The notes: generated by a model from the sequence alone, not told the origin. DNA of 64,000 bases from an uncultured Verrucomicrobiae bacterium (GCA_963824205.1 CAWGOG010000004.1:149934-213933); one strand, 5' to 3'; counted from the first letter of the stretch, positions 35 through 45,002 are shown. Numbers and translations: made by a program.

Positions 35-2173
35 ATGAGCGACAAGCCGACATTTTTTTCCGAACTGAAACGGCGCAACGTTTACAAGGTCGCAGTGGCC
101 TACGCCGTCGTCTCGTGGCTGCTCATTCAAATCGCCACCCAGGTCTTTCCGTTCTTCGAGATCCCGAACTGGGCCGTTCGCCTGGTTGTGATTCTTTTGA
201 TCCTGGGCTTCCCGATCGCCTTGATTCTCTCCTGGGCCTTCGAAATCACCCCCGAAGGAATCAAACGCGAATCGGAAGTTTCCCCTAACGAATCGATCAC
301 CGCTCATACCGGGCGGAAACTGGTCGTCCTAACCGTGCTTCTGGCCGTCCTCGCCGCCGGGTTGTTCGCCTGGCAAATGATGCGTTCTAAAGGCGCAAGG
401 GCAGTCGAGGGTCGAGCTCCTGCGAGACCGCTTTCGGAAGACGGCGTCGCAGGAGCTCCGCCCTCCACGCCTCCCGGCGTCTCCGCACCCATCCCCGACA
501 AAAGCATCGCCGTCCTGCCATTCGACAACCTGAGCGACGATAAATCGAACGGCTATTTCGCCGAAGGCATCCAGGACGAGATCCTGACCCGGCTCTCCAA
601 GATCGCGGCGCTGAAAGTCATCTCGCGCACTTCCACCCAAAAATACAAAAGCGCCCCGGATAATTTGCGCGAAGTCGGCAAGCAACTCGGAGTGGCGAAC
701 GTTCTCGAAGGCAGCGTCCAAAAAATCGCCAACGCGGTGCACATCAATGTGCAGCTGATTCGCGTCGCGACGGACGAACACTCTGGGCGGAGAGTTACAA
801 TCGCAAACTCGACGACGTTTTCGGCGTGGAAGGCGAAGTGGCCGCCGCCATCGCCGATCAATTGAAGACCCAGCTGACCGGCGCGGAGCAAAAAGCGGTT
901 ACGAAAAGCCAACCCAAAACCCAGCGGCTTACGACGCCTACCTGCGCGGCCTGGCGATCGAGCATAACGAATACAGCTACAGGCCTCATACGACCGGGCC
1001 GCGCGGAGTCTACGCTGAGGCCGTGGCCAGCTGATCCGAACTTCGCCCTGGCCTGGGCGCGGCTGGCCGTCATGCGAAGCTTCCTGTATTTCAACATGGT
1101 TGATCGCGAGACACAACACTGCGGCAGCGGTGAAGGAAGGCGGCCGATCGCGCCATGGCGCTCGCACCCGAAGCCGGTGAATCGTGGATCTGCGCAGGGC
1201 GCATATCGTTACCGCATCTTGCGCGACTTCGAAGGCGCCGTTGCTTCCTACAAACAAGCGCAAACCCGATTGCCTAACAATGCCTACGTTTTGCAGAATC
1301 TGGCCTTTGTCTTGCGCCGGGTCGGGCGCTGGGACGAAGCCGAGGCAATCTTCAAGAAGGCCCTTGAGCTCGATCCGCGCGACGTCTCATTGCTGAGTAG
1401 CCTCGGCGGCGAGTTCTACAATTACCTTCGCCGCTTTGACGACGCGCGAAAGGCCCTGGACGCGGCCTTGGCCATCGCGCCCGACGCGCAAACTCCGCGC
1501 GCGAACAAGGCTGGCGTCTATCTCAGCGAAGGAAAGCTCGACGAAGCCGCCGCCATTATCCGGACAATTCCAGGGGACGCTGCCACGGAGGATTTTAGTC
1601 CTAAGCAACCAGACTCGGTCTGGCACTCTATCAGCGTGATTTCGATGCCGTCGTCGAGGCGATGAAGCAGAAGCTAAATGGGATCAAGGCGGGCGAGCCG
1701 CTCGATTCCATTGTCCTCGGCGGTCTTGTGCAAATGGGCTTTTGCCAGGAGTGGCTCGGTAAGCGTGACGATGCTCGGGAAACGTTTACTCGCGTGGTCA
1801 ATGCCATTAAACCGACGGCGGACACCGTCGTCGCGCCGGAGGCCAATGGAATTCCATCGACCCTCGCTTTCGCTTATGCCGGGCTCGGTGAGAAGGAGAA
1901 GGCTCTCGCGCAGGCGCACAAGGAGTGAAAGACTACGACACCGATGCCGTGAACAAACCCGCGGCGGAGATTTCCCTGGCGCAAATCCAGGCACTCTTCG
2001 GCGACCATGACGCCGCCATCGCGGCCTTGCCGCATCTGCTGCAAGTTCCAGCCGGCCTCACGATCTCGAACCTCAAGTTCGATCCATCCTGGGATCCCCT
2101 GCGAAAAGATCCGCGCTTCCAGAAGTTGGTGACCGAAGGCCCCTCGCCTTCGCCTAACAAATCGCAGCCATGA
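35..2173 (+). pseudogene. TolB-N-like/TPR membrane protein paralog (3-TM FFSELKRRNVYKVA head), disrupted by at least 3-4 frameshifts and an in-frame stop
   Basis: ORF fragments 35-865 (frame 2), 826-1665 (frame 1), 1662-1928 (frame 0) and 1925-2173 (frame 2) together recapitulate the paralog architecture. The N-terminus is MSDKPTFFSELKRRNVYKVAVAY plus 3 TM helices. The TolB-like motif KSIAVLPFDNLSDDKSNGYFAEGIQDEILTRLSKIAALKVISRTS follows, then TPR-like segments, and the C-terminus carries the family motif DPRFQKL. It ends in an ATGA overlap with the next gene. Confidence 0.6.
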
Positions 2174-4107
2174 GCGGAGACCGCCCCTTTTTCGCCGAAT
2201 TGAAGCGGCGAAACGTTTACAAGGTTGCGGTCGCGTACGGTGTCGTCGCCTGGCTCGTAGTCCAGGTTGCCACCCAGGTCTTCCCCTTCCTCGAGATTCC
2301 AAACTGGGCCGTTCGCCTTGTCATCGCACTGGTCGTGATCGGGTTTCCGATTGCGCTTGTGATCGCATGGGCCTTCGAAACCACACCGGAAGGACTCAAA
2401 CGAACCGAGACAGCCGACGCCATGCCGGCGACCGCCCGCCGCCAGAAGAAAACCTGGATCTACGTCGTCGTCATCGGCGGTGCAATCTCCGTCGCGCTTT
2501 TCTTCGCCGGCAGGTACACCGCATCTACCGCAGGCAACCAAACATCTCAAAACCCTAACGAGCCAACCACCAAGTCCATCGCGGTGCTGCCTTTTGTGAA
2601 CATGAGCGCGGACAAGGAAAACGAATTCTTCGCCGATGGGCTTTCCGAGGAAATTCTGAATTCGCTCGCCCGGATCGATGGGATGCGAGTGGTCGGCCGC
2701 ACTTCGTCGTTTCAGTTCAAGGGCAAGGCCGAGGATCTCCGCGCCATCGGCCAAAAACTGGGCGTCGCCAATGTGCTCGAAGGCAGCGTACGGCGTGAAG
2801 GCCAACGGGCCCGGATCACGGCGCAGCTCGTCCGTACATCCGATGGCATCCACTTATGGTCACAGACTTACGATCGCACGCTGACGGATACGCTGGCGGT
2901 GCAACTGGATATCGCCGAGCAGGTCGCCGGCGTGCTCAACGTAGTGCTGGACGACAAACAGCGGGACGCGATGCGTGCCGCCGGGGTAAAAAATGTCGAT
3001 GCCTTCATCGCCTATGAAAAAGGATTGAAGCTTTATGCCGATGCGCACAATCCGGCCAAAAGCCACAACGTCATCGATGGTCTGCGGGCCGCGAACAAAG
3101 AGTTCGATAGCGCCATTGCGCTGGACCCGGGGTTTTCCCAGGCTTATTTCGCCGCCGCGGATCTGTACGATCACATTATCCTGGCAGACGACCGGCCGGA
3201 CTCGGAACGTCGCGACGCCCAACAGCAGGTTTTGCATTACCTCGAGCTCTCGGCCGCTAATAGTCACGATGAACAGCAACGCCTCCTGACTCTGGCTGAC
3301 CGACAGTTGGTGGAAGACGACTGGCATGGCCTGCCGGCCCGGATCGACACCGCCTTGCGTGCGCCGGGATGCAGCGCACCAGACTGGTTACCGGTCTTTG
3401 CATGTATCTTTGGTTATGGCGATCTGATCGAAGATCTCGGAGCGCGTGTCAGCGTTTGTGATCCTCTCAATGCGGTCAATTTCAATACTCGCATTCGCGC
3501 TGCCTTGGCCGCGGGGAAACCGGAGCGGGCGCTCGCTATTCTGACGGCGGCCGAGAAGGCGAATAGCGGCACGCCGCCACATAGCGCTTATCGCGTTCAG
3601 GCCTTTCTCATGGCCGGACATGTGGACGAAGCCAGAACCGAATTGTCCAAGTTGGAGCCCACCGGCGAAAACTACTATCGGGCTCGACTCATGTTTGGCC
3701 TGGCGACAGGCGAGAGTGCCGCCAGCATCCATGCGGCCTTGCAAAGCGTCGATCGGAGCAAGTCCGTCTACAAAGTGTGGAAGATGAACGACATGATCGA
3801 GGCCGCGCTCATGGGCGATCGCGTAACCGCGAATCGCCTGGCCGGAGAAATCGACAAGCAACCTGGCGGCGGCCTGATCCTGGCGGTGATCGCTGCTGAC
3901 AGCTTGTGCGGCGCGCCCTTCGATCTTGAGGCGACACCTTATTTCAAGGCCAGGCTCGCCCAATCGGGTTTGCCCTGGCCGCCGATGCGGGCCCTCAAGC
4001 TTCCACCGCGCACCGCGGCATCCAATCCACTGCGCGGCGATCCACGCTTCGAAGCGCTGGCCGAGAAGATTATTCCGGCAGCAGAATTTCCCGCGCCTGC
4101 CAAATGA
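2170..4107 (+). CDS. TolB-N-like domain / TPR repeat membrane protein (3-TM anchor head), intact paralog
   Basis: The 645-aa ORF has the N-terminus MSGDRPFFAELKRRNVYKVAVAYGVVAWLVVQ and 3 predicted TM helices. It carries the TolB-like motif KSIAVLPFVNMSADKENEFFADG...VVGRTSS...LEGSVRR and a C-terminal helical/TPR-like region ending DPRFEAL. Its ATG overlaps the upstream stop as ATGA. Confidence 0.85.
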   Translation: MSGDRPFFAELKRRNVYKVAVAYGVVAWLVVQVATQVFPFLEIPNWAVRLVIALVVIGFPIALVIAWAFETTPEGLKRTETADAMPATARRQKKTWIYVVVIGGAISVALFFAGRYTASTAGNQTSQNPNEPTTKSIAVLPFVNMSADKENEFFADGLSEEILNSLARIDGMRVVGRTSSFQFKGKAEDLRAIGQKLGVANVLEGSVRREGQRARITAQLVRTSDGIHLWSQTYDRTLTDTLAVQLDIAEQVAGVLNVVLDDKQRDAMRAAGVKNVDAFIAYEKGLKLYADAHNPAKSHNVIDGLRAANKEFDSAIALDPGFSQAYFAAADLYDHIILADDRPDSERRDAQQQVLHYLELSAANSHDEQQRLLTLADRQLVEDDWHGLPARIDTALRAPGCSAPDWLPVFACIFGYGDLIEDLGARVSVCDPLNAVNFNTRIRAALAAGKPERALAILTAAEKANSGTPPHSAYRVQAFLMAGHVDEARTELSKLEPTGENYYRARLMFGLATGESAASIHAALQSVDRSKSVYKVWKMNDMIEAALMGDRVTANRLAGEIDKQPGGGLILAVIAADSLCGAPFDLEATPYFKARLAQSGLPWPPMRALKLPPRTAASNPLRGDPRFEALAEKIIPAAEFPAPAK

Positions 4108-5904
4108 AGAGCGATAACTTCTTCGCCGAGCTGAAGCGGCGCAATGTTTACAAGGTCGCGGTCGCCTACGCAGTCGTTGGCTGGCTGGTTGTCCAGGTGA
4201 GTTCGACGGTCCTGCCAACTTTTCATGCACCCGAGTGGGTCGTGCAGACGCTGGTGGTGATCGTTGCGATCGGGTTTCCCGTCGCCCTCGTCATCGCGTG
4301 GGCTTTTGAAGCGACGCCAGAAGGAATCAAGCGAACCGAGGTGGCAGACGCCATGCCGGAAACGGCACGATCAAAGAAGCACGCCTGGATTTATGTGGTG
4401 CTCATTGGCGCTGTTATTTCGGCGGCCGTCTTCTTTGCGGCCCGTGGCGGCAAACGAATGTCTTCGTCGGAAACAGTATCCGGCGGCGAACCGGCAGTGT
4501 CCCTGCCGGCGAAGTCGATCGCGGTATTGCCGCTTGATAATCTGAGCGAGGACAAGGCGAACGCCTATTTCGCAGAAGGTGTGCAGGACGAAATTCTCAC
4601 GCGTCTGGCCAAGGTGGCCGACCTGAAAGTCATCTCGCGCACATCGACGCAGCGATTCAAAAGCACGCCGACAGATTTGCGTGAGATCGCGAAGCAGCTT
4701 GGGGTCATGAACATTCTCGAAGGCAGCGTACAGAAGGCAAACGACCAGGTGCGGGTCAATGTTCAATTGATCAACGCCACTACCGATGCGCATCTCTGGG
4801 CGGAGATTTACGATCGCAAGCTGACGCGATATCTTCGCGGTCGAGAGCGACATCGCGAAAACTATCGCCGATACCTTACAGGCGAAACTGACCGGTTCAG
4901 AAAAGCAAATGATGGCCACGGCTCCGACTAACGACACGACGGCCTACGAGCTTTATCACAAAGGCAGATCGCTATGGGGAAAGCGGACGGGCGACAATAT
5001 TCCGAAAGCAATCGAATTCTACCAGCAGGCGATTTCGCACGATCCGAATTACGCGCTGGCTTACGCCGGTCTTTCGAGCGCATATATTCTGTCCCCCTTT
5101 TACGCTAACGCGAACCGGCTCGAGATGTCTGCGAAAGCGAAAGAGGCGGCCCTCAAAGCTCTCCAACTCGATCCAAATTTGGCCGAAGCGCACGCGGCAC
5201 TTGGAAAAGTGCTCTTCTTTGGCGAAATCGATCTGGCCGGAGCCGCGCGCGAATACAAGCGCGCGATCGAGCTCAAGCCGAACGACGCAGACGCCCACCA
5301 TTGGTTCAGTAACGACATTCTGGCGGCGCTGGGACGATTCGACGAGGCCATCGCCGAGGGCAGGCGCTCGGTTGAATTAGATCCGTTGTCGGTAGTCATA
5401 AACGCGGACCTGGGCGAGACGTTCTACTACGCCAAGCGCTACGACGAGTCAGTTACGCAATTGCGAAAGACGCTCGAGATCGATCCAACATCTTTCTACA
5501 CGCACTACAATCTCGGCATTGCTCTTCAGGCGAAGGGCGACCTGCCTGGTGCAATTGCCGAATACGAGAAAGCTAAGGAATTAGGCGATAACACGACTGT
5601 GTCGACGTTTTACGCCGCGGCCAAAGCGCAGGCTGGTGACAAGGAGGCCGGGCGGCGGATGTTGAGCGAGCTCGACAAAATAAGTCAGCAACGCGAGGTG
5701 GTTGGCTACTTGCGCGCTCTACTCTATCTCAGCTTGAACAATAAAGATGAAGCTCTGCGCTGGCTCGAACAGGGCATCAAGGAACGCGACGGCTCAAACA
5801 TCTGCTGGATCAATGTTGATCCCCTCCTCGCTTCGCTACACGGCGACCCGCGCTTCGAGACCCTTGTCCAAAAAGTGATCGCGCCAAAAACGGAAACGAA
5901 GTGA
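4104..5904 (+). pseudogene. TolB-N-like/TPR membrane protein paralog with a single +1 frameshift near 4824-4830 (possible sequencing error)
   Basis: ORF 4104-4931 has the MKSDNFFAELKRRNVYKVAVAY head, 3 TM helices and KSIAVLPLDNLSEDKANAYFAEGVQDEILTRLAKVADLKVISRTS. It continues in frame +1 as ORF 4909-5904, which holds TPR repeats and ends DPRFETL. Across the junction, the alternative frame reads DIFAVESDIAKTIADTLQAKLTGSEKQ, matching the other paralogs. A 1-nt insertion therefore explains the frameshift. Confidence 0.6.
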
Positions 5905-7751
5905 ACCCCGGCAATTTCTTTGCCGAGCTCAAACGGCGAAATGTTTACAAGGTCGCGGCCGCGTATCTGGTGGTCTCTTGGCTCCTGATCCAGGCGGCTT
6001 CGATTCTTTTTCCCACGTTCGATGCCCCCGCATCAGCGATGAAGATTCTGGTGGTCATCCTTGCAATCGGCTTTCCCATCGCGCTTGCCTTCTCCTGGGC
6101 CTTCGAGATCACCCCCGAAGGACTCAAGCTCGAATCGGACATCGATCCCAAGCAATCGATTGCGCAGCACACCGGAAAGAAGATTATTGGCCTAACGATC
6201 ACGCTGGCGGTCATCGCAGCTGGGCTCTTCGCCTACCGACTATTGCGGCCCCGTGACGCGGCTGTAGGGGAAGCTGTTAGCTTCCCGCCTAAACAAGATG
6301 GGAAGCTAACAGCTTCCCCTACAAACCGAGGTCTCGCGGGAGCTGCATCCTCCATCCCCGAAAAAAGCATCGCCGTTCTTCCGTTCGATAATCTCAGTCG
6401 CGACCCTGATAACGCCTATTTCAGCGAAGGCATTCAGGACGAAATTCTGACGCGACTGGCCAAGGTGACGGATCTCAAGGTGATCTCACGCACCTCGACT
6501 CAACGCTTCAAAAGCACCCCTAACGATCTTCCTCAGATTGCCCAGCAACTCGGCGTGGCCAACATTCTCGAAGGCAGCGTGCAGAAGGCGGGCGATCAAG
6601 TGCGCGTCAATGTTCAGCTGATTAAGGCAGCCACCGATGCGCATCTTTGGGCGGATACCTACGATCGGAAGCTGACCGACATTTTTGCAGTCGAAAGTGA
6701 AATTGCGCGGACCGTCGCAGAGACGCTCCAGGCCAAGCTTACCGGAGCGGCGCCGCAGGTATTGTCGTCGAAGCCGACGGAAAATCCGGAAGCACACGAG
6801 CTTTACCTCAAAGGGCGCCATTTCTGGAACCGCCGCAACGAGGCCGACATCAAGAAGGCTTTGCAATACTTCCAGGAAGCGGTGGCGAAAGATCCCTCGT
6901 ACGCCCTCGCCGTTGTTGGAGTGGCTGACTCTTATGCCATCCTGCCAAGCTACAGCAACGATCCGCCCAAGCCAGAGGTGGAACGGGCTTTGGCTGCAGC
7001 ACACAAGGCCATAGAGCTCGACGATTCACTGGCCGAGGCGCACACCGCTCTGGCGAACGCTCTCGGGGCCGACTTTCAGTTCGCGGCTTCGGAGGCCGAA
7101 TTCAAACGCGCCTTCGCCTTGAATCCTAACTACGCCTCGGCCCACCAGTGGTATGGCGAATGCCTTCAGTCGTTAGGTCGCTTCGATGAAGCTATCGCGG
7201 AGCTCCGCCACGCCCACGACCTCGATCCCCTTTCGATGATCATCAATGTCGTGCTCGCAGGCACGTATTACTCCGCGGGCCGGATGGACGAAGCCACTCA
7301 ACAACTCGCGCGCGCGATTGAGCTCGACCCGACCTTCACGGTCAATTATTGGTTGCGCGGCCAAATCGACGAAAGCCGCGGACAATTTGGCGAAGCTATT
7401 GCCGACTACAAGAAAGCCGCGATTTCTACTTCCCCTGAAGTAACCCAGGCACTGATTGCCTGCGCTTATGCCCGTTCAGGCGAGACCGCCAAAGCGCAAG
7501 AGATTTTGAAATGGTTGACTGCACGATCGCAGCAAACCTTTCTTCCCAGTTACTATATCGCCGAGGTTCACGCAATGCTCGGGAACAAGGACGAAGCCAT
7601 TCGCCTCCTCGAAAAAGCTTACGAAGAACGAAGCATCCCCGTGGGCGGCGCGGGCATTGGCGGCCCGATCACCGATCCTCGCTTCGATTCTCTTCGCGGC
7701 GACCCACGTTTCCAGAAACTGATTGCGAAATTTTCCGGCGAGGCAAAGTGA
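5901..7751 (+). CDS. TolB-N-like domain / TPR repeat membrane protein (3-TM anchor head), intact paralog; GTG start
   Basis: The 616-aa ORF has the head MNPGNFFAELKRRNVYKVAAAY and the motif KSIAVLPFDNLSRDPDNAYFSEGIQDEILTRLAKVTDLKVISRTS. TPR repeats follow, and the C-terminus ends DPRFQKLIAKF. Its GTG start overlaps the upstream stop as GTGA. The linker carries an in-frame REP-like palindrome pair at 6264-6324. Confidence 0.85.
   Translation: MNPGNFFAELKRRNVYKVAAAYLVVSWLLIQAASILFPTFDAPASAMKILVVILAIGFPIALAFSWAFEITPEGLKLESDIDPKQSIAQHTGKKIIGLTITLAVIAAGLFAYRLLRPRDAAVGEAVSFPPKQDGKLTASPTNRGLAGAASSIPEKSIAVLPFDNLSRDPDNAYFSEGIQDEILTRLAKVTDLKVISRTSTQRFKSTPNDLPQIAQQLGVANILEGSVQKAGDQVRVNVQLIKAATDAHLWADTYDRKLTDIFAVESEIARTVAETLQAKLTGAAPQVLSSKPTENPEAHELYLKGRHFWNRRNEADIKKALQYFQEAVAKDPSYALAVVGVADSYAILPSYSNDPPKPEVERALAAAHKAIELDDSLAEAHTALANALGADFQFAASEAEFKRAFALNPNYASAHQWYGECLQSLGRFDEAIAELRHAHDLDPLSMIINVVLAGTYYSAGRMDEATQQLARAIELDPTFTVNYWLRGQIDESRGQFGEAIADYKKAAISTSPEVTQALIACAYARSGETAKAQEILKWLTARSQQTFLPSYYIAEVHAMLGNKDEAIRLLEKAYEERSIPVGGAGIGGPITDPRFDSLRGDPRFQKLIAKFSGEAK
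6264..6324. repeat. Inverted pair of REP-like hairpin elements (tgtaggggaagctgttagcttccc / gggaagctaacagcttcccctaca) inside a coding sequence
   Basis: The two copies form a perfect 61-bp palindrome around a 13-nt spacer. Each copy is itself an 8-bp stem hairpin (GGGAAGCT-NNN-AGCTTCCC). The same core recurs at 56319-56368 and 56845-56870. Confidence 0.55.
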
Positions 7752-9523
7752 GAACCAACTTTTTCGCCGAGCTGAAACGCCGGAACGTCTACAAGGCGGC
7801 GGTGGCTTACGCCGTCGTTGCCTGGCTCATCGTCCAGGTCGCCACGCAGGTTTTTCCGTTCTTCGACGTGCCTAACTGGGCTATCAGGCTCGTGGTGATC
7901 CTTTTGGTTCTCGGATTTCCGGCAGCGATGATTTTTTCCTGGGCTTTCGAAATCACACCCGAAGGGATCAAGCGCGAGTCGGAAATAGACGCTAACGAGT
8001 CAATCGCGCCGAGAACGGGACAAAAACTTGTCGCGATGACGGTCGTCCTCGCTGTCATCGCCATCGGCTTGTTCATGTTCCAAAGGCTTCGCCAGACCAC
8101 GTCCGCAACGGCGCCAAACGCTCTTCCTGCGATCACCGCCAAGTCCATCGCCGTCCTGCCATTCGAGAATCTTAGCCGCGATCCCGACAACGCGTTTTTC
8201 GCCGACGGCGTCCAGGATGAAATCCTGACTCGCCTGGCGCGGATTGCCGATCTAAAAGTCATCTCGCGAACTTCGACCGAGAAATACCGCACCAAGCCGG
8301 ATAATCTGCGCGAGATCGCGCAGCAACTGGGCGTGACCAACATTCTCGAAGGCAGCGTCCAAAAAGCGGGGGACCAAGTGCGCATCACCGTGCAGCTGAT
8401 TAACGCCCTGACCGATTCACATCTGTGGGCCGACACCTTCGATCGCAAACTGCTCGATACGTTTGCGGTCGAAAGCGATGTCGCGCAAAAAATCGCCGCT
8501 TCGCTAGAAGCGAAACTGACCGGATCGGAAAAACGCGCGATCGCGGCCCGCCCGACAGAAAATTCGGAGGCCTATCAGCTTTTCCTCAAAGGCCGCTTCT
8601 TCTGGAACAAGCGGACCGGCTCCGACCTTCACACCGCGGCGAATTACTTCGAGCAGGCGATTGCCGCCGACGCCAATTTTGCCGGCGCCTACGCTGGATT
8701 GGCCGACGCGGACCTTCTCATCCCGGTATTCGGCGCAGGCGCCCCGCGCGAATTTTTCCCCAAAGCCATGGCCGCGGCACGTCGTGCAATCGAACTCGAC
8801 GACGCGTCTGCCGAAGGACACACCGCCCTTGCTCAACTGGTCATGTTCGATTTCAAATTTCCCGAATCAGAGCGTGAGTTTCGGCGCGCGATCGAACTGA
8901 ACCCCAATTACGCCACCGCTCATCACTGGCTGGGCAACAGCCTTTTGGTCACCCTTGGTCGCTTCGACGAAGCCGTCAAAGAGGGCCGGCGCGCCATGGA
9001 ATTGGATCCGCTTTCGCTCATCATTAATGCCGATCTCGGAAGCACCCTGCTGGTTGCGCGGCGATATGACGAGGCGATTGCTCAATTACAGCGAACACTC
9101 AAGCTGGACAGCAATTTCGCCTACGCCCACTGGAACCTTGGCGAAGCGCTTTATCTCAAAGGCGATCTTCCAGGCGCGATTGCAGAATACCAGCGCGCAG
9201 ACGCCCTCGATGACGATCCCGAAATCACAGCGTTGTTAGGCGCTGCCTATGCCAAGGCAGGACAACGGGACAAGGCGCTGGAGTGTCTCGAGAAACTCAA
9301 GCAAGTCGAAAAACAGCGATTCGTTCGCAACTATCTTTTCACCTTTCTCTATGCCGCTCTCGGCGACAACGCGACCGCCCTGAATTATCTCGAGAAGGCA
9401 GATAACGATGGCGAAACCCCCGATACGACATGGATGAAGGTGGATCCGCTTTTCGATTCCCTACGAGGCGAGCCGCGTTTCCAGAAACTGATCGCGAAAC
9501 TCTTTCCGGACACCGCTAAGTGA
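7748..9523 (+). CDS. TolB-N-like domain / TPR repeat membrane protein (3-TM anchor head), intact paralog; GTG start at 7748
   Basis: The long ORF 7511-9523 has a non-homologous, Arg-rich N-extension that overlaps the upstream gene. Homology to the paralogs begins at VRTNFFAELKRRNVYKAAVAY, which is encoded from GTG 7748 and overlaps the upstream TGA as GTGA. The protein carries KSIAVLPFENLSRDPDNAFFADGVQDEILTRLARIADLKVISRTS and TPR repeats, and ends DSLRGEPRFQKLIAKLF. Confidence 0.8.
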   Translation: MRTNFFAELKRRNVYKAAVAYAVVAWLIVQVATQVFPFFDVPNWAIRLVVILLVLGFPAAMIFSWAFEITPEGIKRESEIDANESIAPRTGQKLVAMTVVLAVIAIGLFMFQRLRQTTSATAPNALPAITAKSIAVLPFENLSRDPDNAFFADGVQDEILTRLARIADLKVISRTSTEKYRTKPDNLREIAQQLGVTNILEGSVQKAGDQVRITVQLINALTDSHLWADTFDRKLLDTFAVESDVAQKIAASLEAKLTGSEKRAIAARPTENSEAYQLFLKGRFFWNKRTGSDLHTAANYFEQAIAADANFAGAYAGLADADLLIPVFGAGAPREFFPKAMAAARRAIELDDASAEGHTALAQLVMFDFKFPESEREFRRAIELNPNYATAHHWLGNSLLVTLGRFDEAVKEGRRAMELDPLSLIINADLGSTLLVARRYDEAIAQLQRTLKLDSNFAYAHWNLGEALYLKGDLPGAIAEYQRADALDDDPEITALLGAAYAKAGQRDKALECLEKLKQVEKQRFVRNYLFTFLYAALGDNATALNYLEKADNDGETPDTTWMKVDPLFDSLRGEPRFQKLIAKLFPDTAK

Positions 9524-11936
9524 ACCCTCCGGCAAATCGAGCGGAAGAAATGAAACTCGATATCGGTCACGTTCTGTTCATCGACATTGTCGGCTATTCC
9601 AAGCTTCACCTGGACGAACAAACCAATCTAATCCAGACGCTGCGCGAGATTGTTCGCAATACTGAGCAAGTCCGCCTGGCGGAGAAGGAAGGCAAGCTTC
9701 TCCGCCTGCCCACCGGCGATGGCGGCGCACTTGTGTTCCGAAACAACCTTGAAGCGCCTGTCCTGTGTGCGCTCGAAATCAGTCAGGCGCTCAAAAGCCA
9801 TCCCGAGCTCCCGGTCCGCATGGGCATTCACAGCGGCCCGGTTAACGAAGTAACCGATCTCAACGAACAGGCCAACGTCGCCGGCGTCGGAATCAACATG
9901 GCCCAGCGCGTCATGGATTGCGGCGACGCCGGGCACATCCTGCTTTCCAAACGCGTAGCCGATGACCTCGAACAATATCCGCAGTGGCGTTCGCGGCTAC
10001 AGTCCCTCGGCGAATGTGAAGTCAAACACGGTGTTCGAATTGGCCTGGTCAATCTTTACACCGATGAGGCTGGCAACGCGAAACCGCCCGCGCGACTCGC
10101 TGCTGGCGACAAAACGCCCACTCGCCCCGCCAAAAGACTAACGAACTTTCAACGTCTCCTTGCGACTCTCGTCCTCCTTGTCTGCCTCGGCGTTCCCGCG
10201 CTCATTTTCATGCCCGCGATTCTCAAATCTTACCGAACGAAGGCCGGGACCATGGTTCCGGAAAAGAGCATCGCCGTTTTGCCTTTTGAAAATCTGAGTG
10301 ATGACAAAACCAACGCTTACTTCGCCGACGGGATTCAAGATGAAATTTTGACCAAGCTGGCCGGGATTGCTGACCTGAAAGTTATCTCCCGCACTTCCAC
10401 AGCTAAGGTACAAGAGCAAACCGGAAGATTTGAAGACCGTCTCGCAGCAGTTAGGCGTCGCTACCGTGTTAGAGGGCACGGTGCAACGGGCCGCAGACAA
10501 GGTCCGCGTGAACGTTCAGTTGATCGATGCCCGTGCCGACGCCCACCTTTGGGCGAAAACCTTTGATCGCGAGCTCAAGGATGTTTTCGCGGTGGAAAGC
10601 GAAGTGTCACAGGAGATTGCAAATGCTTTGCAGGCAAAACTTTCGCCTAAAGAAACTAACAACCTGGCCACCGCCCCGACCCAGGATACCGAGGCCTACG
10701 ATCTATTCTTGAAAGGTGAATTCGAGGAGCGGGAGGCGGAAAGCTCGCTCAAACCTGAGGCGTACGATCAGGCTGTTAGTTGGTATCGGCAAGCCGTCGC
10801 GCATGATCCGAGCTTCGCTCTTGCGGTTGCTCGCCTCGCTCGTAGCCAATTAGATCGCCACTGGTTCGTCCAACCTTTAACGGAACCGCAATTGGCTGAA
10901 GTAAAGAACACGATAGACCACGCGTTGACGCTCGCGCCGAATCTGGCCGAGACGCACGTCGCACTTGGAGAATTCTATTACCTTGGCCATCGCGAGTACG
11001 AGCAGGCCCTGGCCGAATTCCGAAAGGCAATCGACCTACAACCAAACAATGCCTGGGCGGCCGAGCTTTCCGCATTTGTCCATCGGCGTCAGGGGAAATG
11101 GCGGGAGTGTTTGACTGAGCTCCTTAGGAGCAAGGAAACGGATCCTCTGAATGCCGTGGTTGCCGCTGACATTGGCACCACCTACGTGCACTTACGGATG
11201 TGGAAGCAAGCCAGGGAGGCCGCGGCCCATGCTCTCGAAATCAATCCACACAATGTCGTGGCGATGCGCGTGAGTCTTGTCAGTTGTCGCAATGGAAGCG
11301 GCGATCTCACCGAAGCGAAACGCTTGCTGGCGACATTTCCGAAAGAGCCTGACCTCACAGTGACGCGTCCCGGTGTCGCCCCGCTCATTGGTGAGCGCGC
11401 TTACCTATCGATCATCGAGCGAGAGTTTGGAGCTGCTCTCACTGTCTGGGAAAACGATCGCAGCGATCCCGGCGAAAAGCGCAAGCAGCTTTCCGCGCGC
11501 TCGGCCATCCGCGTTCTTTCCGGCGACCTGCCTGCTGCTAAGGCTGATGCTGAAGAAGCGCATAACCTGCTAGATAGCCGATTACGTGAGCAACCGAATG
11601 ATGAGTTCGCGTTGGTCCAGTTGAGTTGGGTGGATCTGGCCCTTGGCCGCGTTGCCGAGGCAATCAAAGCGGCGCGAGAAGCCGCGGACTTGCTACCAAT
11701 CGAGAAAGATCGCTTTCGACGGGACGTCGGCGCTGGTCAATCTGGCGGAAGTTCAGGCGCGCGGTGGTCACGGTGAGGAAGCGATTACGATCTTGAAACG
11801 ACTGCTTTCCATTCCAGCGGGCTTTGATGTTTCGATTGTCAGACTAAAGATCGATCCGGTCTGGGATCCGATCCGCAATGATCCGGGGTTCCAACAACTC
11901 CTCGCCGGCAAAGAGCAGATCGGGCCTAACCAGTGA
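9520..11936 (+). pseudogene. Cyclase-homology-domain (class III nucleotide cyclase-like) / TM / TolB-N-like / TPR protein with at least 2 frameshifts (near 10407 and near 11700)
   Basis: ORF 9520-10566 encodes a cyclase-like head (VLFIDIVGYSKL...LRLPTGDGGALVF...MGIHSGPV...GVGINMAQRVMD), then a TM helix, then KSIAVLPFENLSDDKTNAYFADGIQDEILTKLAGIADLKVISRTSTAKV. After a 1-nt insertion (aagGtacaag) it continues in ORF 10430-11776 (PEDLKTVSQQLGVATVLEGTVQ plus TPR). The family C-terminus (KIDPVWDPIRNDPGFQQLL) lies in a third frame, ORF 11643-11936. Confidence 0.6.
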
Positions 11937-11965
11937 CAGAAGAGGATGCGTAACGTTTTCGCCGA

Positions 11966-14080
11966 GTGATGGCCCCGGAAATAAAAAAAGAAATTCAGCT
12001 CGAGATCGCCCATGTCTTGTTTATCGACATCGTCGGTTACTCGAAGCTTTCGATTAACGACCAGCGCGCGGCGATTGACGAACTGACTCAAGCCGTTCGC
12101 GCGACCGAACAATTTCAAAAAGCTGAGGCCGCGGCCCGCTTGATCAAGATCCCGACCGGCGACGGAATGGCGCTGGTCTTTTACAAGAGCCCGGAAGAAC
12201 CGGTGGAATGCGCGCTCGAAATCAGTCGCGCGCTCAAGGGACATCCGAGGATACAACTTCGCATGGGAGTGCACAGCGGCCCGGTCAGCGGCGTGATCGA
12301 TGTGAACGGTCACGCTAACCTTGCCGGGGCTGGCCTTAATATGGCGCAACGCGTGATGGACTGCGGGGACGCTGGACACATTCTTCTCTCCAAGCGCGTG
12401 ACCGAAGACTTAGGGGAGTACGAGCACTGGCGACCGCTTCTGCACGATCTCGGCGAATGCGAAGTGAAGCATGCAGTGCGTGTGTCGATCGCGAATCTGC
12501 ACGCGGATGAAGTGGGCAATCCGCAACTGCCGAGAAAATTCGAGGCCCTGAAAAAACGCAGGGCACGCAAGCGCTGGGCTACTGCGGCGATAGCATTGTT
12601 CGCACTCGCGACAATCGTCGCCGCCTTTGTCTTTTCCCAGAGATCGGCGAAATCGACATTAGCCGCGCCAGAAAAGAGCATCGCTGTTTTGCCTTTTGAA
12701 AATCTGAGCGATGACAAGGCGAACGCCTATTTCGCTGAAGGGATACAGGACGAACTTCTGACGCGTTTGTCGAAGATCGCCGATCTCAAGGTGATTTCGC
12801 GGACGTCGACCGAGCATTACAAGAGCGCTCCGGGGAATTTGCCGGAGATTGCGCGCCAACTTGGTGTCGCCAACATCATGGAGGGGAGCGTTCAAAAGAG
12901 CGCGGACGCCGTGCGCGTGAATGTGCAGTTGATCAAGGCGGCGACCGACTCTCATCTCTGGGCCGACAGCTTCGATCGAAAGTTAACCGACGTTTTTGCC
13001 GTCGAAAGTGAGATCGCCGCGACCATTGCGGATAAGTTAAAGGCGAAACTAACTGCGCCGGAAGCGCAGGCGATTCAGCTGCGACCGACGGAGAGCGCCG
13101 CCGCCCACGAGCTTTACTTAAAGGGGCTCTACTTCTGGAACAAACGAAACGCCGCCGATCTGGAGAAAGCGTTGGCTTACTTCAACCAGGCGGTAGGGCA
13201 GGACCCTAACTATGCGCTCGCCTGGACTGGAATTGCGCAAGCCTATACCCTTTTGCCTCTCTACGGCGGAGCTTCGCCCGCTGACGCTTTGCCGAAGGCT
13301 AGGGCAGCGGCGAATAAAGCCATCCAACTCGACCCAACCTTAGGCGAACCGCACGCTGTTCTGGGTAATTTACTGACCGCCACGTTTGAGTTTCCGGAGT
13401 CGATGCGCGAATTCGAGAAAGCCATCGCCCTTAACCCCAATGACGCGACCACCCATCACTGGTTTGGCGATTCGCTTCTGGAATGCATTGGAGATCATGA
13501 TCGATCCATTGCCGAACACAAACGTGCCTTGGAACTCGATCCTCTTTCCCTCGCCATCAATATCGATCTTGGCTACTCCTATTATACGGCCGGACGTTAT
13601 TCGGAAGCGATTGCGCAAGGGCGCAAGGCGCTGGAGCTCGATCCGAATTCCTATGCTGCCCACTACAATCTTGGCTGGGCTTTGGAAGCCAGCGGAGATC
13701 TACCTGGCGCCCTCGCCGAGTACGCGAAAGCAGTCTCCTTGGATTCCGATCCCTTCGCGCTCGCATTGCTTGGGCACGCTGAAGCGCTCCACGGAAATCG
13801 CGATGCCGCCTTGGAGATTTTGAAGAAATTGACTACGTCCACGCGCTATACACCGGATTACTCCATCGGCCTCGTCTATCTCGGTCTCGGCGATCGAGAT
13901 CAGGCAATGAATTGGCTGGAAAAGGCCTTCGCCGAAAAACAACCGGACGTAAACACCATTCGTTTCGATCCGCTCCTTAAACCACTCCATGGCAACCCGC
14001 GCTTCGACGCGCTTGTTGAGAAAATCGCTCCTGCACGAGTGCTGGAGTCGCTGGTGACGGAAAACAAAAAACCGAATTAG
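11966..14080 (+). CDS. Cyclase-homology-domain-like / TM / TolB-N-like domain / TPR repeat protein, intact
   Basis: The 704-aa ORF has the cyclase-like head EIAHVLFIDIVGYSKL...LIKIPTGDGMALVF...MGVHSGPV...AGLNMAQRVMDCGDAGHILLS. A TM helix (AAIALFALATIVAAFVF) follows, then KSIAVLPFENLSDDKANAYFAEGIQDELLTRLSKIADLKVISRTS and TPR repeats. It ends FDPLLKPLHGNPRFDALVEKI. Confidence 0.85.
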   Translation: MMAPEIKKEIQLEIAHVLFIDIVGYSKLSINDQRAAIDELTQAVRATEQFQKAEAAARLIKIPTGDGMALVFYKSPEEPVECALEISRALKGHPRIQLRMGVHSGPVSGVIDVNGHANLAGAGLNMAQRVMDCGDAGHILLSKRVTEDLGEYEHWRPLLHDLGECEVKHAVRVSIANLHADEVGNPQLPRKFEALKKRRARKRWATAAIALFALATIVAAFVFSQRSAKSTLAAPEKSIAVLPFENLSDDKANAYFAEGIQDELLTRLSKIADLKVISRTSTEHYKSAPGNLPEIARQLGVANIMEGSVQKSADAVRVNVQLIKAATDSHLWADSFDRKLTDVFAVESEIAATIADKLKAKLTAPEAQAIQLRPTESAAAHELYLKGLYFWNKRNAADLEKALAYFNQAVGQDPNYALAWTGIAQAYTLLPLYGGASPADALPKARAAANKAIQLDPTLGEPHAVLGNLLTATFEFPESMREFEKAIALNPNDATTHHWFGDSLLECIGDHDRSIAEHKRALELDPLSLAINIDLGYSYYTAGRYSEAIAQGRKALELDPNSYAAHYNLGWALEASGDLPGALAEYAKAVSLDSDPFALALLGHAEALHGNRDAALEILKKLTTSTRYTPDYSIGLVYLGLGDRDQAMNWLEKAFAEKQPDVNTIRFDPLLKPLHGNPRFDALVEKIAPARVLESLVTENKKPN

Positions 14081-14584: not shown

Positions 14585-17500
14585 TTGCCTATGAAGAACT
14601 TCCGTATCGGAGCGCTCGTCGCTGTACTTATTCTCAGCCTTGGTTTCTGGACCGGACCGGTCCGCGGCCAGGGCGCAACTGGAAACCCGGGAACACCTGG
14701 AGTTGATGGTGATAACGGCAAAAAGGGAAACGATGGCGTGCAGCCGGGCGATCCCAACGGCGGCGATGGAACTTCGGGTACCGATGGGTACCTGGCGGCG
14801 GTGAAGCCAGCTCGGGGACTGGTGGTGACGGTCAGTCTGGGCTCTCGACCAGTTCCGCGCCTGCGTCCGGAAATTATCACGGTGAAGACGGCGCAACCGG
14901 AACGGGCGGCGATGGTGGTAGCGGCGGCAATGGCGGACGTGGCGGCAGGGGCGGCGACGGCGCTGCTGTCGGACCGTCAGGCGCGACTGGCGTAACTGGC
15001 GTTACTGGTCCGACCGGAACGATTCTTCCCGCGATCGCGATTTCAGTGACTGGCGGTAATGGCGGCAACGGCGGAGCTGGTGGCAACGGCGGCGACGGCG
15101 GAAACGGCGCCGACGGAACTGGCGGCAATGGTGGCGCCGGGCTCGTTATTTTTTCACCGACTGATCTGACCGGAATCACTTTCACAAATACCAACGCGGT
15201 TGGCGGCAACGGCGGCGCTGGGATCGGCGGCAATGGTGGCGATGGCGGCAATGGTGGAAACGGTGGGAATGGCGGAAACGGTGGAGACGGTACCGGGGCC
15301 GACGGCTTTGACGAAAACGGCGGCGACGGAATCGGCGGCAATGGCGGCAATGGCGGAAACGGCGGTTTCGGCGGCGCCGGTGCAACCGGCGGCCTTGGCC
15401 AAGGCGGGCGCGGCGGCGAGGGTCTCGTGCTTACCGCCAACAACAACATTGATTCAATCACGATCAATAACACGGGCCCAGCAGCCGGCGGTAATGGCGG
15501 CAACGGCGACGGCGGCAACGGTGGCAATGGCGGTAAAGGTGGCAACGGCGGCGACGGCGGTAATGGCGGCAACGGATTCGGCGGCGGAGCCGCCGTCGAA
15601 ATTATCGGGGCCCCGATTCGCGATCAGGCTTTGACATTCGCTGGGACGGGTATCGGCGGTGACGGTGGCAATGGCGGTAACGGCGGCTTCGGGGGCAATG
15701 GCGGCAACGCTGGCGTCGGTTTCGGGGGCAACGGTGGCCACGGCTTGGAAATTGTGGCCGGCGGAACGGTAACAAATATCAACCTGACGAATTCGGACAC
15801 CGCGTCAGGAGGCGCTGGTGGAAATGGAACTTCGGGTAGCGGAGGCGCGGGCGGCAATGGTGGCAACGGCGGAAATGGTGGTAATGGCGGCAACGGAACC
15901 GCTGGACCAGCTTCGAGTTCTGGTGTCACCCCAGGTGATTCCAGCGGTGGCCTCGGTGGATTCGGAGGAAACGGTGCCAATGGCGGCAATGGTGGCACGA
16001 GCAATTTCGGACAGGGCGGAAACGCGGGCGACGGCATCGCCATTTTTGGAAGCGGGATCGATACGGTTACCCTAACGAATAGTGGCACCGCACAAGGCGG
16101 TAATGGCGGGGTTGGTGTCGATCAAGGCGGCGGAAATGGTGGCAAAGGCGGCGACGCGGGGAACGGCGGCAATGGCGGTGACGCCTTGCCTGCCCCAGAA
16201 CCACTCGAGCCTGTTTTCAATTTCGCCGGTAACGGCGGCAATGGCGGCGGCGCTGACGTCGCTTTCGGCGGCAACGGCGGCGACGGTATCACCTTCAGCA
16301 CGGAGGGAAGCATCACCAACGTCACTCTTGATAACCCGGGCAATGCCCTCGGGGGGAATGGCGGCGACGCCACCGGCGGTAACGGCGGAAAAGGCGGCAA
16401 CGGCGGCTTCGGCGGCAATGGCGGCAATGGATTTAACTCCCTAACGAACCAAGATAGCGTCACCAATCTTGCCGGCGGTGGACAGGATGGCGGTTTCGGC
16501 GGCAACGGCGGTTTCGGCGGCAACGGCGGCTCAGCGTTCGCCGGAGATGCCGGCTGGGGAATCGCCTTCCGCTCGGACGGAACTGATACAATTTCCCTAA
16601 CGAATGAAGGCCTGGCTTCCGGTGGTAACGCCGGTTCGGCCGTAGGAGGATCTGGCGGCAACGGTGGCAAGGGCGGCAACGGCGGGAACGGGGGTAACGG
16701 TGGCAACGCGTTAGGCGGCGACCCGGCGATCGGCGGCTTCGGCGGCAACGGATTGGATGGCGGCAATGCCGGTAGCGGCGGTTTCGGCAACACTGCCCAG
16801 GGCGGCAGCGGCGGGGAAGGCATCGGCTTCCAGACTTTTGGCTCCGGCAACAACATTTCCAATATCACAATGTTCAATACCGGCAGTGCCCTCGGCGGTA
16901 ATGGCGGAAACGCCCAGGGTGGCAATGGCGGCAGCGGTGGGAATGGTGGGAACGGCGGCAATGGCGGCAACGGCGGCGACGCTACCGGAGGAATTGGCGG
17001 CAACGAAAACACTTATGAAGGTGACGGCGGCGATGCCGGCAATGGCGGCAATGGCGGCAACGGCGGCGACGGAAGCTTCGGCGGATCCGGCTTTGGTGGC
17101 GACGGCGGCAACGGCGTGAGTTTCCGCTCAAGCGGCGACATCACAAACGTGTTCATCAAGAACCTTGGAACTTTCGCCGGCGGCAACGGCGGTTTTGGCG
17201 CCGGTGGTAACGGCGGCAATGGTGGCAACGGAGGAAATGGCGGTGACGGCGGCAACGGCGGAACTGGAACCGGCGGAAGCGACGGCGAAGTTACCGGCCC
17301 TGGATTTGGTGGAACCGGTGGCAACGGCGGCAACGGCGGCACTGGTGGTAACGGAGGCAGTGGTGCAAACGGCTTCGGCGGCAACGGCGGCGTCGGACTT
17401 CTCTTTGCCCTCGGCGGCATGCCTTTGAACGCTTCTGGTGCCGAGCCCCAAGGAAATATCCAACCAGGGGGCGGATCGTTCCAGAATATTACCGTGATCA

Positions 17501-19449
17501 ACAACGGAACGATTACCGGCGGCAACGGCGGTAATGGCGCCGGCGGTCTTGGCGGCGCAGCCGGCAGTGGCGGCGCCCGCGGCGCGCGCGGCAATGGCGG
17601 AAGTGGAATCGGCGGCGAAGGCAGTGCCGACGGCAATAATGGAACTGCCGGCACGGCTGGCACCTCCGGCGATAGTGGCTCACCCGGCGCAGGCTTCGCC
17701 GGTAACGGCGGCGCCGGCATTGAATTTCGTCGCGCCGAAATTGACGGCGGCGGCGATGGACCCCTGATCATTCCGGTGACTAACGACAGCAACCTGGTGA
17801 TCAACAACTGTGGCGACATTTTCGGCGGTAATGGTGGCAACGGAAACAATCCCGGCAACGCCGGCGAAGGTATTCGAGCGCACGCCGATAACCTGACGAT
17901 CAATAACTGGGGCGACGTTTTCACCGGCACGGGCGCCAATCAGGCGGCCATCCGATTTATCGGTAACAACGACACCATCAATCTGCGCGGTTGGTCCGTC
18001 ATTCACGGCGTCATGACTAACGATGGCGGCGGCGCTAACGACATCATTAACTTCGCCTTTTCGGGGGTCAACAACCAGAAGGCCGCGCAGCTGAATTCGA
18101 TGCTCTCACCATTTCTCACCGGAACCGAGAGCAGCGGCACCATCACCTTCCGGGGTGAGACTTACAGCTGGAACAACCTGATCGTGCAGGATAATCCCAC
18201 TTCCTACCAGGCGTTGGCGACCACCTCCGGTGGAAAATCTCTCGGCGCAGCCTTGGATAGTTTCAATACCACACCGCCGCGCGCGCTTCGCGATCTCCTC
18301 TGCCTGATTGATCAGAGCGGCGCCATTGGCGAGAACCTCGATCAACTTTCGCCACAGGTTTATCAGGAATACAGCGAGATTGCCCTGGCGATTATGAACT
18401 TCACGACCCAGGCAATCGATGCCCGTTTGAACAATCTCCACGATGGTAGCGAAAGCATCGATACCCGCGGACTCGGCGGTATGGGCGGCCTAACGACCGG
18501 CCTCGTGACCGAAACGAATACCATTGCTTATCAGCGCGATGGCAAAACAACGCTGTCCGAGGGCAAAGACAAGGAGGTAGCCGCTCCGGCCCCCGACCAA
18601 AAACAGTGGGGATTCTTTGCCTCCGGCACAGGTCTCTTCGGCGACATCGATGCTGACAAAAATGCCGGACGTCTCAGCGACGCCGACTTCACCAGTTGGG
18701 GTGTCCTCGGAGGTGTAGACACGAAAATCGGCGACCATTTCGTCCTCGGCGCTTACGGCGAGTACACCCACACCTGGGCCGATCTCGACAATCAAGGCAG
18801 CAATGCTGAGATAGACAGTTACGGCGGCGGCCTTTACCTCGGCTGGCATGGAAGCCCGCCCTATTTGAACGCTCTCTTCAACGTCACCAAGAATTCCTAC
18901 GACAGCAATCGCACGATCGCCTTGATCGGGCTGCCCGATCCGGTTGTTCACGCGAACGCCGATGGCCTTCAGTTCGGCGGCGATCTCTCCGGCGGCTATG
19001 ATTTTTATATCGGTGACCATTTCGCCATTGGGCCCTTTGTCGGGCTGCAATATGTCCACTTCGACGTTAACGACTTCAACGAAGTCGGCCCGATCCCAAC
19101 CGGTCTCGTAATTGGGGACGAATTGAATTCACTCCGATCGCGCATGGGAGGCAAGGCGGATTACCACACTACTTTCCGCCGCGTCGCTCTGGATTTTCAG
19201 GCTCGCGCCGCCTGGCAGCATGAATACCTCGACGATGGCCACAACATCACTGGCAGTTTCTTCGGTGGCGGCGGCCCGACTTTCATCGTCCCGACCACCA
19301 TCCACGGCCGCAATGCGGCTCTCTGTGGTGTCGGCGCCAACGTGACCGTCTGGAATATGCTCACCTTCTTTGCCGACTACGATGTCCAGGCCGGCCAGAG
19401 CGATTACCTGGTGCAAAGCGCCAAAGGCGGCTTGCGCATCGATTTCTAG
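14585..19449 (+). CDS. Large Gly/Asn-rich (GGNGG repeat) autotransporter-like surface protein with signal peptide, collagen-like GXY N-terminus, PATR-like beta-strand repeats and C-terminal beta-barrel; apparent frameshift near 14790-14800
   Basis: ORF 14585-14995 encodes a signal peptide ([28 protein letters not shown]) and GXY repeats. The +1 frame stays open from about 14790 and joins ORF 15046-19449 (1467 aa). That ORF carries long [11 protein letters not shown] tracts interleaved with recurring motifs of the form [18 protein letters not shown]. A non-repetitive domain follows, then a C-terminal autotransporter-type beta-barrel ending GLRIDF. Confidence 0.7.
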
Positions 19450-43112: not shown

Positions 43113-43801
43113 TCAATGGGTCGTGACATAGGGCGAAGACAAATGATCGATGCCATTGTTCGGCGCAGAGGGAGAGACAAAGACTTCGAAATCATATTGC
43201 AAGCCTACCACGTTGATCGACACAACCGAGGCCACGAGCAAGTCGGCGCTGACCTGAAGATTTTGGATGGTGCCGCTCGAAGGAACCGGGAAGGAAAAAC
43301 CGCCCGCTTCCGGAGGCGAAGTGGATTGGCCACTCCCATCGATGACTTCGGTGGTGTGATTTCCAAAACCTAACAAGACCGGCGCAGCCGAAACGACGGT
43401 CGCTCCCGAAAGGATGACGCCATTCGAGAAAACAATGAGTCCGGTGCCCTGTCCAGTCGCGCCAGTAGCCCGGCGCCCAGCGGCGGGGCCCGTTGCTCCA
43501 GTCGATCCGGTGGCGCCAGTTGCTCCGGCATTCCGCTCGGGCCGATGGGACCCGTGAGACCCGTCGCGCCAGTTGTTCCATTCGCGCCAGTCGGCCCGAT
43601 GGGTCCGGTAACTCCGGAGGGACCTCGCGCGCCGGTCGGCCCGACAGGACCGGTGGCACCGCGCGGTCCCGTAGCACCGGTGGCGCCGGTTGGTCCCGTC
43701 GCACCTGTCGGCGGAGGCATCTGTTTGGCGGAGCTCGCGCCCGGCGTCATTACGCCGAGGATAAAAAGTAACGAAAGCAGTCTAACTAATTGTAGTTTCA
43801 T
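43113..43801 (-). pseudogene. Collagen-like (GXY) secreted protein with BclA/C1q-like C-terminal domain, with a frameshift near 43510-43520
   Basis: ORF 43370-43801 encodes a signal peptide ([25 protein letters not shown]) and 20 or more GXY triplets, then degenerates. The third frame (ORF 43113-43376 and upstream) continues [15 protein letters not shown]...[39 protein letters not shown]...VSPSAPNNGIDHLSSPYVTTH. Its ATG overlaps the upstream gene's stop as ATGA. Confidence 0.55.
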
Positions 43802-44706: not shown

Positions 44707-45002
44707 AAAAATCCCTGAGTTACTGAATTGTTCCCCGACAAGATACACAGAATCCACAGCAAGTTTCGCCGCACTTTGAGGAAAAGGTTTGGCACACAGA
44801 GGGGATCGCTTTGATCGCGACCCCAAATGAGCGCTGTTTTGTTCCACTTTCCTTCAAAAAAGTGCGGTTTCCATTATTCCGCATCGTAAGCAGCTTACGA
44901 TATTTTCGATCCCGACTGATTTTGTTCTTTCTGATTTCTGTCCCGCTGCCTCGACCTGGCCTTCGGCATTGACGCTTCGGCTCTCTCTGCCAAAATCGCC
45001 GC

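Follow-up and report, generated by a model that had tools for sequence, protein, structure and literature searches.

In a 64,000-nucleotide stretch of DNA from an uncultured Verrucomicrobiae bacterium (GCA_963824205.1 CAWGOG010000004.1:149934-213933; hereafter the window) we analysed three genes whose products begin with a cyclase-like head: gene A (9520-11936, plus strand) and gene B (11966-14080, plus strand), which together make up the region 9520-14080, and the separate gene C (23483-25507, plus strand). These heads are class III cyclase-homology domains rather than chance motif matches, and by profile comparison they constitute a sharply separate subfamily. From their sequences they appear to keep a basic residue at the position of the substrate-specifying Lys (K in gene B, R in genes A and C), set behind a hairpin that is one residue longer than usual, and to have exchanged the substrate-specifying Asp for Asn. 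We consider that they are probably catalytically competent members of a distinct and conserved subfamily, acting as sensor-controlled homodimers with cAMP as the most likely product.

The family assignment was supported by both profile and structural comparisons. All three heads score above the 21.9-bit gathering cut-off of PF00211, at 31.8 bits for gene A, 26.3 bits for gene B and 22.1 bits for gene C, the last by a small margin, and relatives score 24-42 bits. The same family gives 68.4 bits for a paralog on the minus strand (35331-37484), which has a short-arm class III adenylate-cyclase head, one transmembrane helix and a TolB_N-like and TPR module, and which we used as the canonical comparison. 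An AlphaFold2 (AF2) model of residues 1-200 of the gene B product, spanning its cyclase-homology domain (11966-12565), had a mean predicted local distance difference test score (pLDDT) of 93.4 and a predicted template modelling score (pTM) of 0.88, and its order of secondary-structure elements agrees with the cyclase fold. When this model was compared with the PDB using Foldseek, 170 matches were found at E ≤ 0.001, of which the top 50 are all class III cyclases. The leading matches were 3et6 (Chlamydomonas guanylate cyclase), Rv1900c (1ybu/1ybt), RhGC (5oyh/6sir), Ma1120 and 3mr7; CyaB, CyaC and the mammalian adenylate cyclase C2 domain were also matched, and TM-scores, normalised to the target, reached 0.83.

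Both metal-binding Asps, in the F-x-D motif of β1 and the G-D motif between β2 and β3, are present in the heads, as are the transition-state Asn and Arg of the N-x-x-x-R motif in α4. In gene B these are D21 (12026-12028), D66 (12161-12163), N125 (12338-12340) and R129 (12350-12352); the equivalents are D22, D67, N126 and R130 in the cyclase-homology domain of gene A (9520-10119), and D25, D70, N129 and R133 in gene C. The first metal motif reads FIDIVGYS in genes A and B and FLDIVGYS in gene C, the hairpin reads RLPTGDG in genes A and C and KIPTGDG in gene B, and the transition-state motif reads GINMAQRVMD, GLNMAQRVMD and GINVAQRVMD in genes A, B and C, respectively. The canonical paralog has FTDMVGYS, KTIGDAFLVEF, IGIHIGDV and GDGVNIASRIE, with D18, K57, D61, D114, N121 and R125 as its key residues. 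A first-pass annotation of the window had quoted motifs of this kind for all four genes, reporting that the three heads keep the catalytic residues and that the minus-strand paralog is canonical. The quoted strings are all present, with small variations (GLNMAQRVMD in gene B; FLDIVGYS, GINVAQRVMD and, for the motif discussed below, MGVHSGPI in gene C), and both observations were borne out.

To locate the specificity residues we relied on the spacing in three described cyclases. Rv1625c has metal Asps D256/D300, the substrate pair K296/D365 and transition-state residues N372/R376 (PMC4174876); Ma1120 has the substrate pair K101/D157, with position 164 equivalent to the transition-state Asn (PMC4215837); and RhGC has the pair E497/C566 together with D501 and N573 (PMC5967339). 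These give a rule in which the first specificity residue lies four positions before the second metal Asp, the second lies seven before the transition-state Asn, and the Arg lies four after that Asn. Counting back seven from N125 of gene B gives N118 (12317-12319), and the Asp position is likewise Asn in genes A (N119) and C (N122). Counting back four from D66 gives I62, the residue inserted after K61 (12146-12148), which lies one position further upstream; by plain spacing this position is thus Ile or Leu in the divergent heads, and the basic residues of genes A and C are R62 and R65.

A MAFFT alignment of the four window heads alone placed a two-residue gap in the hairpin and left the Lys equivalence ambiguous, which was settled by profile methods. 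With phmmer and a 33-sequence subfamily profile searched against PDB sequences, the 'liK/R-l/i-pTGDG' segment of the divergent heads pairs with 'ivK-tTGDG' in 3mr7, 'vvK-sQGDG' in Ma1120 and 'evN-tAGDG' in Rv1900c, each alignment having a one-residue insertion after the basic residue in the β2-β3 hairpin. An hhalign comparison of the subfamily profile with an alignment of the canonical paralog family and the same three PDB sequences (probability 99.5%) equates K61 with K57 and N118 with D114. The second position is further anchored by the arm alignment to RhGC, which pairs N118 with C566 in the wild-type sequence (NPHWCLVG) and with D566 in that of the ATP-converted mutant (NPHWDLVG); in Ma1120 the partner of N118 is the Asp replaced by Gly in the 'KDA to EGY' mutant. 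The extra residue that the first-pass annotation saw in (R/K)(L/I)PTGDG is therefore confirmed by these alignments. Its broader statement that the canonical specificity residues are lacking stands for the Asp, which is Asn in 98% of 382 relatives, and appears to fall for the Lys, which by alignment is retained as K or R. It had also considered that an intact Lys/Asp pair might simply be displaced by one position; such a shift does exist on the Lys side, where the basic residue aligns with the canonical Lys across the insertion, but the Asp is not preserved.

The Pro of the G(I/V)HSGP(V/I) motif, which is MGIHSGPV in gene A, MGVHSGPV in gene B (P106, 12281-12283) and MGVHSGPI in gene C, had been put forward as a changed substrate-recognition position. 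The Pro is present as described, but the proposed role did not survive comparison. At the x of GxHxGxV, the canonical paralog and 3mr7 carry D, Ma1120 carries R and Rv1900c carries E, and P is found in the working guanylate cyclases RhGC (GLNSGPV) and Chlamydomonas CYG12 (GMHSGPV). HSGPV thus appears to be an ordinary cyclase motif that is uninformative about the substrate.

Conservation was evaluated in 382 unique domains with 54-90% identity. The metal Asps are present in 99% (D21) and 100% (D66), position 61 is K or R in 93% (202 K and 153 R), and the adjoining hairpin residues are conserved at 97% (I/L62), 93% (P63) and 93% (T64). N118 is found in 98% (374 of 382), the transition-state residues in 98% (N125) and 99.7% (R129), and the phosphate-loop Lys, K168, in 97%. 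With both metal Asps, the K/R, the Asn and the transition-state Asn and Arg each conserved at 93-100%, the active site is unlikely to be that of a dead regulatory domain and is better read as a working one. A non-catalytic regulatory or dimerisation module, which the first-pass annotation had offered as an option, would fit the marginal PF00211 scores, the one non-canonical specificity position and the frameshifts in gene A. Pseudo-cyclase domains, such as the mammalian C2 and C1 half-sites, typically lack the metal Asps or the transition-state residues. The divergent heads retain all of these, their six catalytic positions are near-invariant, and the model is a complete cyclase fold at high confidence, which contradicts the idea of a pseudo-cyclase and makes it very unlikely. 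Three further residues of the gene B product, H16 (12011-12013), C133 (12362-12364) and D135 (12368-12370), are also invariant or nearly so in the 382 members, where the canonical paralog family has A, L and G; they might form a metal or regulatory site.

The identity of the two specificity residues bears on the product. In the established mechanism the substrate Lys and Asp read the base, and guanylate cyclases have Glu at the first position and Cys, Ser, Gly or others at the second (PMC4215837). Judged in this way the divergent heads depart from the canonical K/D adenylate-cyclase definition at the second position, which is Asn rather than Asp (or the Thr of class IIIb), nor are they of the guanylate-cyclase type, as the first position is K or R in 93% of sequences and Glu is never among the residues listed. 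A basic first residue is a hallmark of adenylate cyclases because guanylate cyclases carry Glu there (PMC4215837).

These comparisons allow us to propose how the heads would work. As in other homodimeric class III cyclases, a pair of heads would be expected to join head-to-tail with two active sites at their interface, one subunit giving both metal-binding Asps and its partner giving the base-contacting K/R and Asn together with the transition-state Asn and Arg. The TolB_N-like and TPR sensor module would control this pairing. At the base, the K/R would read adenine N1 and the Asn carboxamide would stand in for the Asp carboxylate as acceptor for the 6-amino group, from which cAMP follows as the most likely product. 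The carboxamide might equally act as a donor to guanine O6, so that a poorer separation of ATP from GTP than in a K/D enzyme is plausible.

Several observations weigh against this model. The PF00211 scores of the divergent heads are marginal, and the extra hairpin residue could shift the K/R side chain off the base; in the gene B monomer model, DSSP places K61, I62 and P63 all in strand β2. Gene C has no transmembrane helix, so that a transmembrane-receptor picture fails for some copies. In the literature searched, Asn was not listed at the Asp position for any adenylate or guanylate cyclase, and no gene for a cyclic-nucleotide-binding protein or phosphodiesterase was found within the 64-kb window.

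The same residues could instead belong to an active cyclase with different or broadened specificity, making cGMP, both cAMP and cGMP, or a pyrimidine cyclic nucleotide, and so giving the cell a signalling route apart from the one served by the canonical K/D paralog of the same region. The whole subfamily shows the exchange of Asp for Asn and the inserted hairpin residue as fixed features while a canonical K/D paralog is kept alongside, K and R are freely interchanged at position 61, and the Asn carboxamide should be able both to donate to guanine O6 and to accept from adenine N6. The cytidylate cyclase EaPycC, moreover, has Arg four residues before its second metal Asp. Set against this, guanylate cyclases have Glu rather than a basic residue at the first position (PMC4215837), and the PycC models of PADLOC do not match the divergent heads. 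We regard altered specificity as a possible but unlikely account, and the narrower proposal, that the K/R and Asn pair with the longer hairpin marks a clade whose preference (dual purine, cGMP or pyrimidine) is unlike that of either K/D or E/C enzymes, as slightly less likely again. If such a new nucleotide preference did hold, Candidatus Udaeobacter and other Chthoniobacterales would run many receptor inputs through a messenger separate from the cAMP of the canonical paralogs.

A related candidate, the Pycsar pyrimidine cyclase PycC, was rejected. None of the three divergent heads has a PADLOC match, for which reason the defence-cyclase reading was dropped, and the canonical paralog matches weakly. 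The genes beside the divergent heads are paralogous receptors, and no gene for a TIR or transmembrane effector is adjacent to them.

The proposed homodimer was also weighed against an arrangement in which the divergent head is active only as a heterodimer with the head of the canonical paralog; as in mammalian C1/C2, one site would then be active and the other regulatory. Canonical and divergent genes are direct neighbours in five related loci (L019, L025, L029, L043 and L078), where a near-identical orthologue of the canonical paralog adjoins the divergent-head genes. In the window, however, the canonical gene lies 21 kb away on the opposite strand, and most related loci have divergent copies only. 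The dimer-interface arm differs between the two types by five residues, and the divergent head has its own metal-binding residues as well as those for the base and the transition state, so that no complementing partner would be needed. We consider an obligate heterodimer extremely improbable.

Comparison with characterised cyclases places the divergent heads nearest to Rv1900c of M. tuberculosis (PDB 1ybt/1ybu) in structure and arm length, with non-canonical residues at different positions. Rv1900c ranks among the top structural matches, with Foldseek TM-scores of 0.81-0.83 normalised to the target, and is the second-best profile match to the subfamily (43 bits), and its arm is nearly identical in length to that of the window heads (...EVRDASHGTDVAGVAV... 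vs ...GVIDVNGHANLAGAGL...). Rv1900c has TxGDG in common with them, together with a small residue, Ala, two positions past the specificity position, and is itself non-canonical at a catalytic position. By alignment, in Rv1900c Asn stands in for the Lys and His for the transition-state Asn, with the substrate Asp kept, whereas in the window heads K/R and the transition-state Asn are kept, Asp is replaced by Asn and the hairpin has the extra residue. The roles of the Rv1900c residues N342 and H402 are said to have been described by Sinha and colleagues in 2005. Rv1900c is fused to an α/β-hydrolase, unlike the window heads with their transmembrane, TolB_N-like and TPR parts.

The best sequence matches among solved structures are Ma1120 of M. 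avium and 3mr7 of Ruegeria (Silicibacter) pomeroyi, both minimal class III adenylate cyclases, which share with the window heads K-x-x-GDG, a conserved Cys in helix α3 and the transition-state Arg. They nevertheless have a canonical K/D pair, lack the hairpin insertion and have an arm shorter by five residues, and they are far nearer to the canonical paralog (78-115 bits; E = 3e-32 for 3mr7) than to the divergent heads (28-48 bits). The best local match to the β4-arm-α4 segment, the one that anchors N118 to C566/D566, is the RhGC catalytic domain (6ao9 and 6sir; E497K/C566D mutants 6aoa and 5oyh), which shares G.(H/N)SGPV and AGHI with the divergent heads. RhGC, by contrast, is a light-gated guanylate cyclase of eukaryotes whose substrate pair is E/C, whose arm is two residues longer and whose hairpin has no insertion. 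To our knowledge, no class III cyclase other than Rv0386 of M. tuberculosis has been characterised with Asn at the Asp position. Rv0386 is reportedly an adenylate cyclase with guanylate-cyclase side activity and a Gln/Asn substrate pair, Q57/N106 (Castro and colleagues, 2005); it differs in having Gln rather than K/R first and in being a cytosolic AC-ATPase-LuxR protein.

The separateness of the subfamily is evident from its own profile hidden Markov model (HMM), which gives more than 300 bits for members in the window and 80 related loci (329.5 bits for gene A and 321.9 bits for gene C) and 34-45 bits for canonical-type paralogs, including 37.8 bits for the paralog at 35331-37484; only truncated copies fall in the gap. 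The divergent subfamily suggested by the first-pass annotation is thus well founded. Among 1.84 billion cluster representatives (50% identity clusters), 1,192 proteins matched at E ≤ 1e-30, and the best 150 of these are 52-89% identical to the query. A word-indexed search returned at least 8,000 matches, the best 120 at 84-90% identity, with source labels of 'adenylate cyclase', 'class 3 adenylate cyclase' or 'hypothetical protein'. Exact-sequence look-ups of the gene B product, with either of its two starts, returned no recorded entry. In a collection of species-representative genomes, the 80 best loci, with heads 59-83% identical to that of gene B, come almost entirely from soil Verrucomicrobiota of the order Chthoniobacterales, including Candidatus Udaeobacter, and 27 of the 80 have tandem copies. 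Literature searches on Udaeobacter or Chthoniobacter cyclases and on TolB/TPR cyclases returned nothing relevant and, as far as that literature shows, the K/R-Asn subfamily appears to be an undescribed, though hardly surprising, form of a very familiar enzyme domain.

We next consider how the heads are joined to their sensors. The fusion to a TolB_N-like and TPR module, reported in the first-pass annotation, is real: Pfam TPR families are found in the products and TolB_N is called in relatives. In gene B this module (SIAVLPF...) occupies 12677-14080 of an intact gene encoding 704 amino acids. Kyte-Doolittle analysis finds one hydrophobic helix after the head in genes A (amino acids 210-238) and B (amino acids 203-227, 12572-12646; maximum 2.44 in a 19-residue window) and in the canonical paralog. 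KKRRARKR precedes the helix in gene B, and by the positive-inside rule this would place the head in the cytoplasm and the sensor module outside, a topology that we infer for both genes A and B. In gene C (674 amino acids) no hydrophobic window rises above the threshold, hence no transmembrane segment separates the head from the TolB_N-like domain to which it is directly joined, and a sensor module of 'periplasmic' type would be cytoplasmic. Relatives P0137 and P0145 share this arrangement.

In relatives the head is combined with TolB_N/TPR, PD40 β-propellers, TPR_10/12 arrays, an N-terminal Ser/Thr kinase or MASE1-HisKA. The N-terminal extension is a Pfam Ser/Thr protein kinase in L034, L049 and P0133, similar extensions occur in L037 and L040, and in L027 (8582-12274) the head is preceded by MASE1 and a partial HisKA; from their domain content, proteins with these kinase or MASE1-HisKA fusions are predicted to be two-output or relay receptors. 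Heads and sensors also appear to have been re-assorted between sensor lineages, because the sensor module of gene B is nearer to its non-cyclase neighbours at 5901 and 7511, which have three-helix heads (53-56% identity, and 71-76% in the TolB_N-like part), than to other cyclase-headed genes (40-41%). Two family assignments were rejected for these proteins. TIGR04510, a putative peptide-modification-system cyclase, scored 50.7 and 39.1 bits in NCBIfam against a cut-off of 400 and matched the TolB_N/TPR part only, and the LipJ family gave sub-threshold NCBIfam matches only.

Genes A and B are the final two of six co-directional genes on the plus strand (2170-14080), all of which encode the TolB_N-like (SIAVLPF...) and TPR module. 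The first four (2170-4107, 4104-5904, 5901-7751 and about 7748-9523, the last compared as 7511-9523) have an N-terminal three-helix membrane head (FFAELKRRNVYKV...), and genes A and B, like the separate gene C, have the cyclase-like head. Four-base ATGA/GTGA stop-start overlaps join neighbours at 4104/4107, 5901/5904, 7748/7751 and 9520/9523, which suggests a single translationally coupled operon of receptor paralogs with two head types.

Gene A contains two inserted single bases that break its frame, G at position 10408 and C at position 11711, both outside long homopolymers, and its open reading frames (ORFs) at 9520-10566 and 10430-11776 overlap in different frames. Removing both insertions gives an 804-amino-acid product that ends at 11936 and matches relatives of about 800 amino acids. 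The restored junctions (TSTAK|YKSKPEDL and LLPIEKD|AFDGTS) agree with paralogs and relatives, and the restored C-terminus is the usual one for the family (...DPVWDPIRNDPGFQQLL). Gene A would be either a young pseudogene or the product of an assembly error. The second gene of the array is also frameshifted: the TPR-only ORF at 4909-5904 is the tail of a paralog at 4104-5904 that starts at the ATG at 4104 (MKSDNFFAELKRRNVYK...), reads through SIAVLPL...YDRKLT and breaks frame near 4830. This brings to three the frameshifts inside 8 kb of one array (10408, 11711 and near 4830).

Elsewhere in the window, a plus-strand gene at 15046-19449 encodes a 1,467-amino-acid autotransporter whose passenger consists almost entirely of GNGG-type glycine repeats; these produce a local excursion in GC content and GC skew and long spurious antisense ORFs (for example 17013-17939). 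Two collagen-triple-helix proteins with G-x-T repeats are encoded at 43798-44847 (minus strand) and 50202-51179 (plus strand), one of which has the BclA C-terminal domain known from Bacillus exosporium fibres, an unusual feature for a Verrucomicrobia-like genome.

The general picture of class III cyclases is unchanged by these findings, as several bacterial members were already known to depart from the canonical specificity residues. The subfamily is nonetheless large, counting 1,192 clusters (50% identity, E ≤ 1e-30) and metagenomic copies in the thousands, and it has been multiplied in tandem and linked to many sensor modules. Candidatus Udaeobacter and other Chthoniobacterales are among the most abundant soil bacteria and form a dominant, largely uncultured soil lineage. 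The apparent K/R-Asn base-reading pair is a warning against inferring a product from a Pfam name, and offers a concrete and cheap biochemical test of the part that the Asp position plays in the choice between ATP and GTP. The interest of the subfamily lies mainly in its abundance and expansion in Chthoniobacterales and Candidatus Udaeobacter, and in the clean test that it provides of that position.

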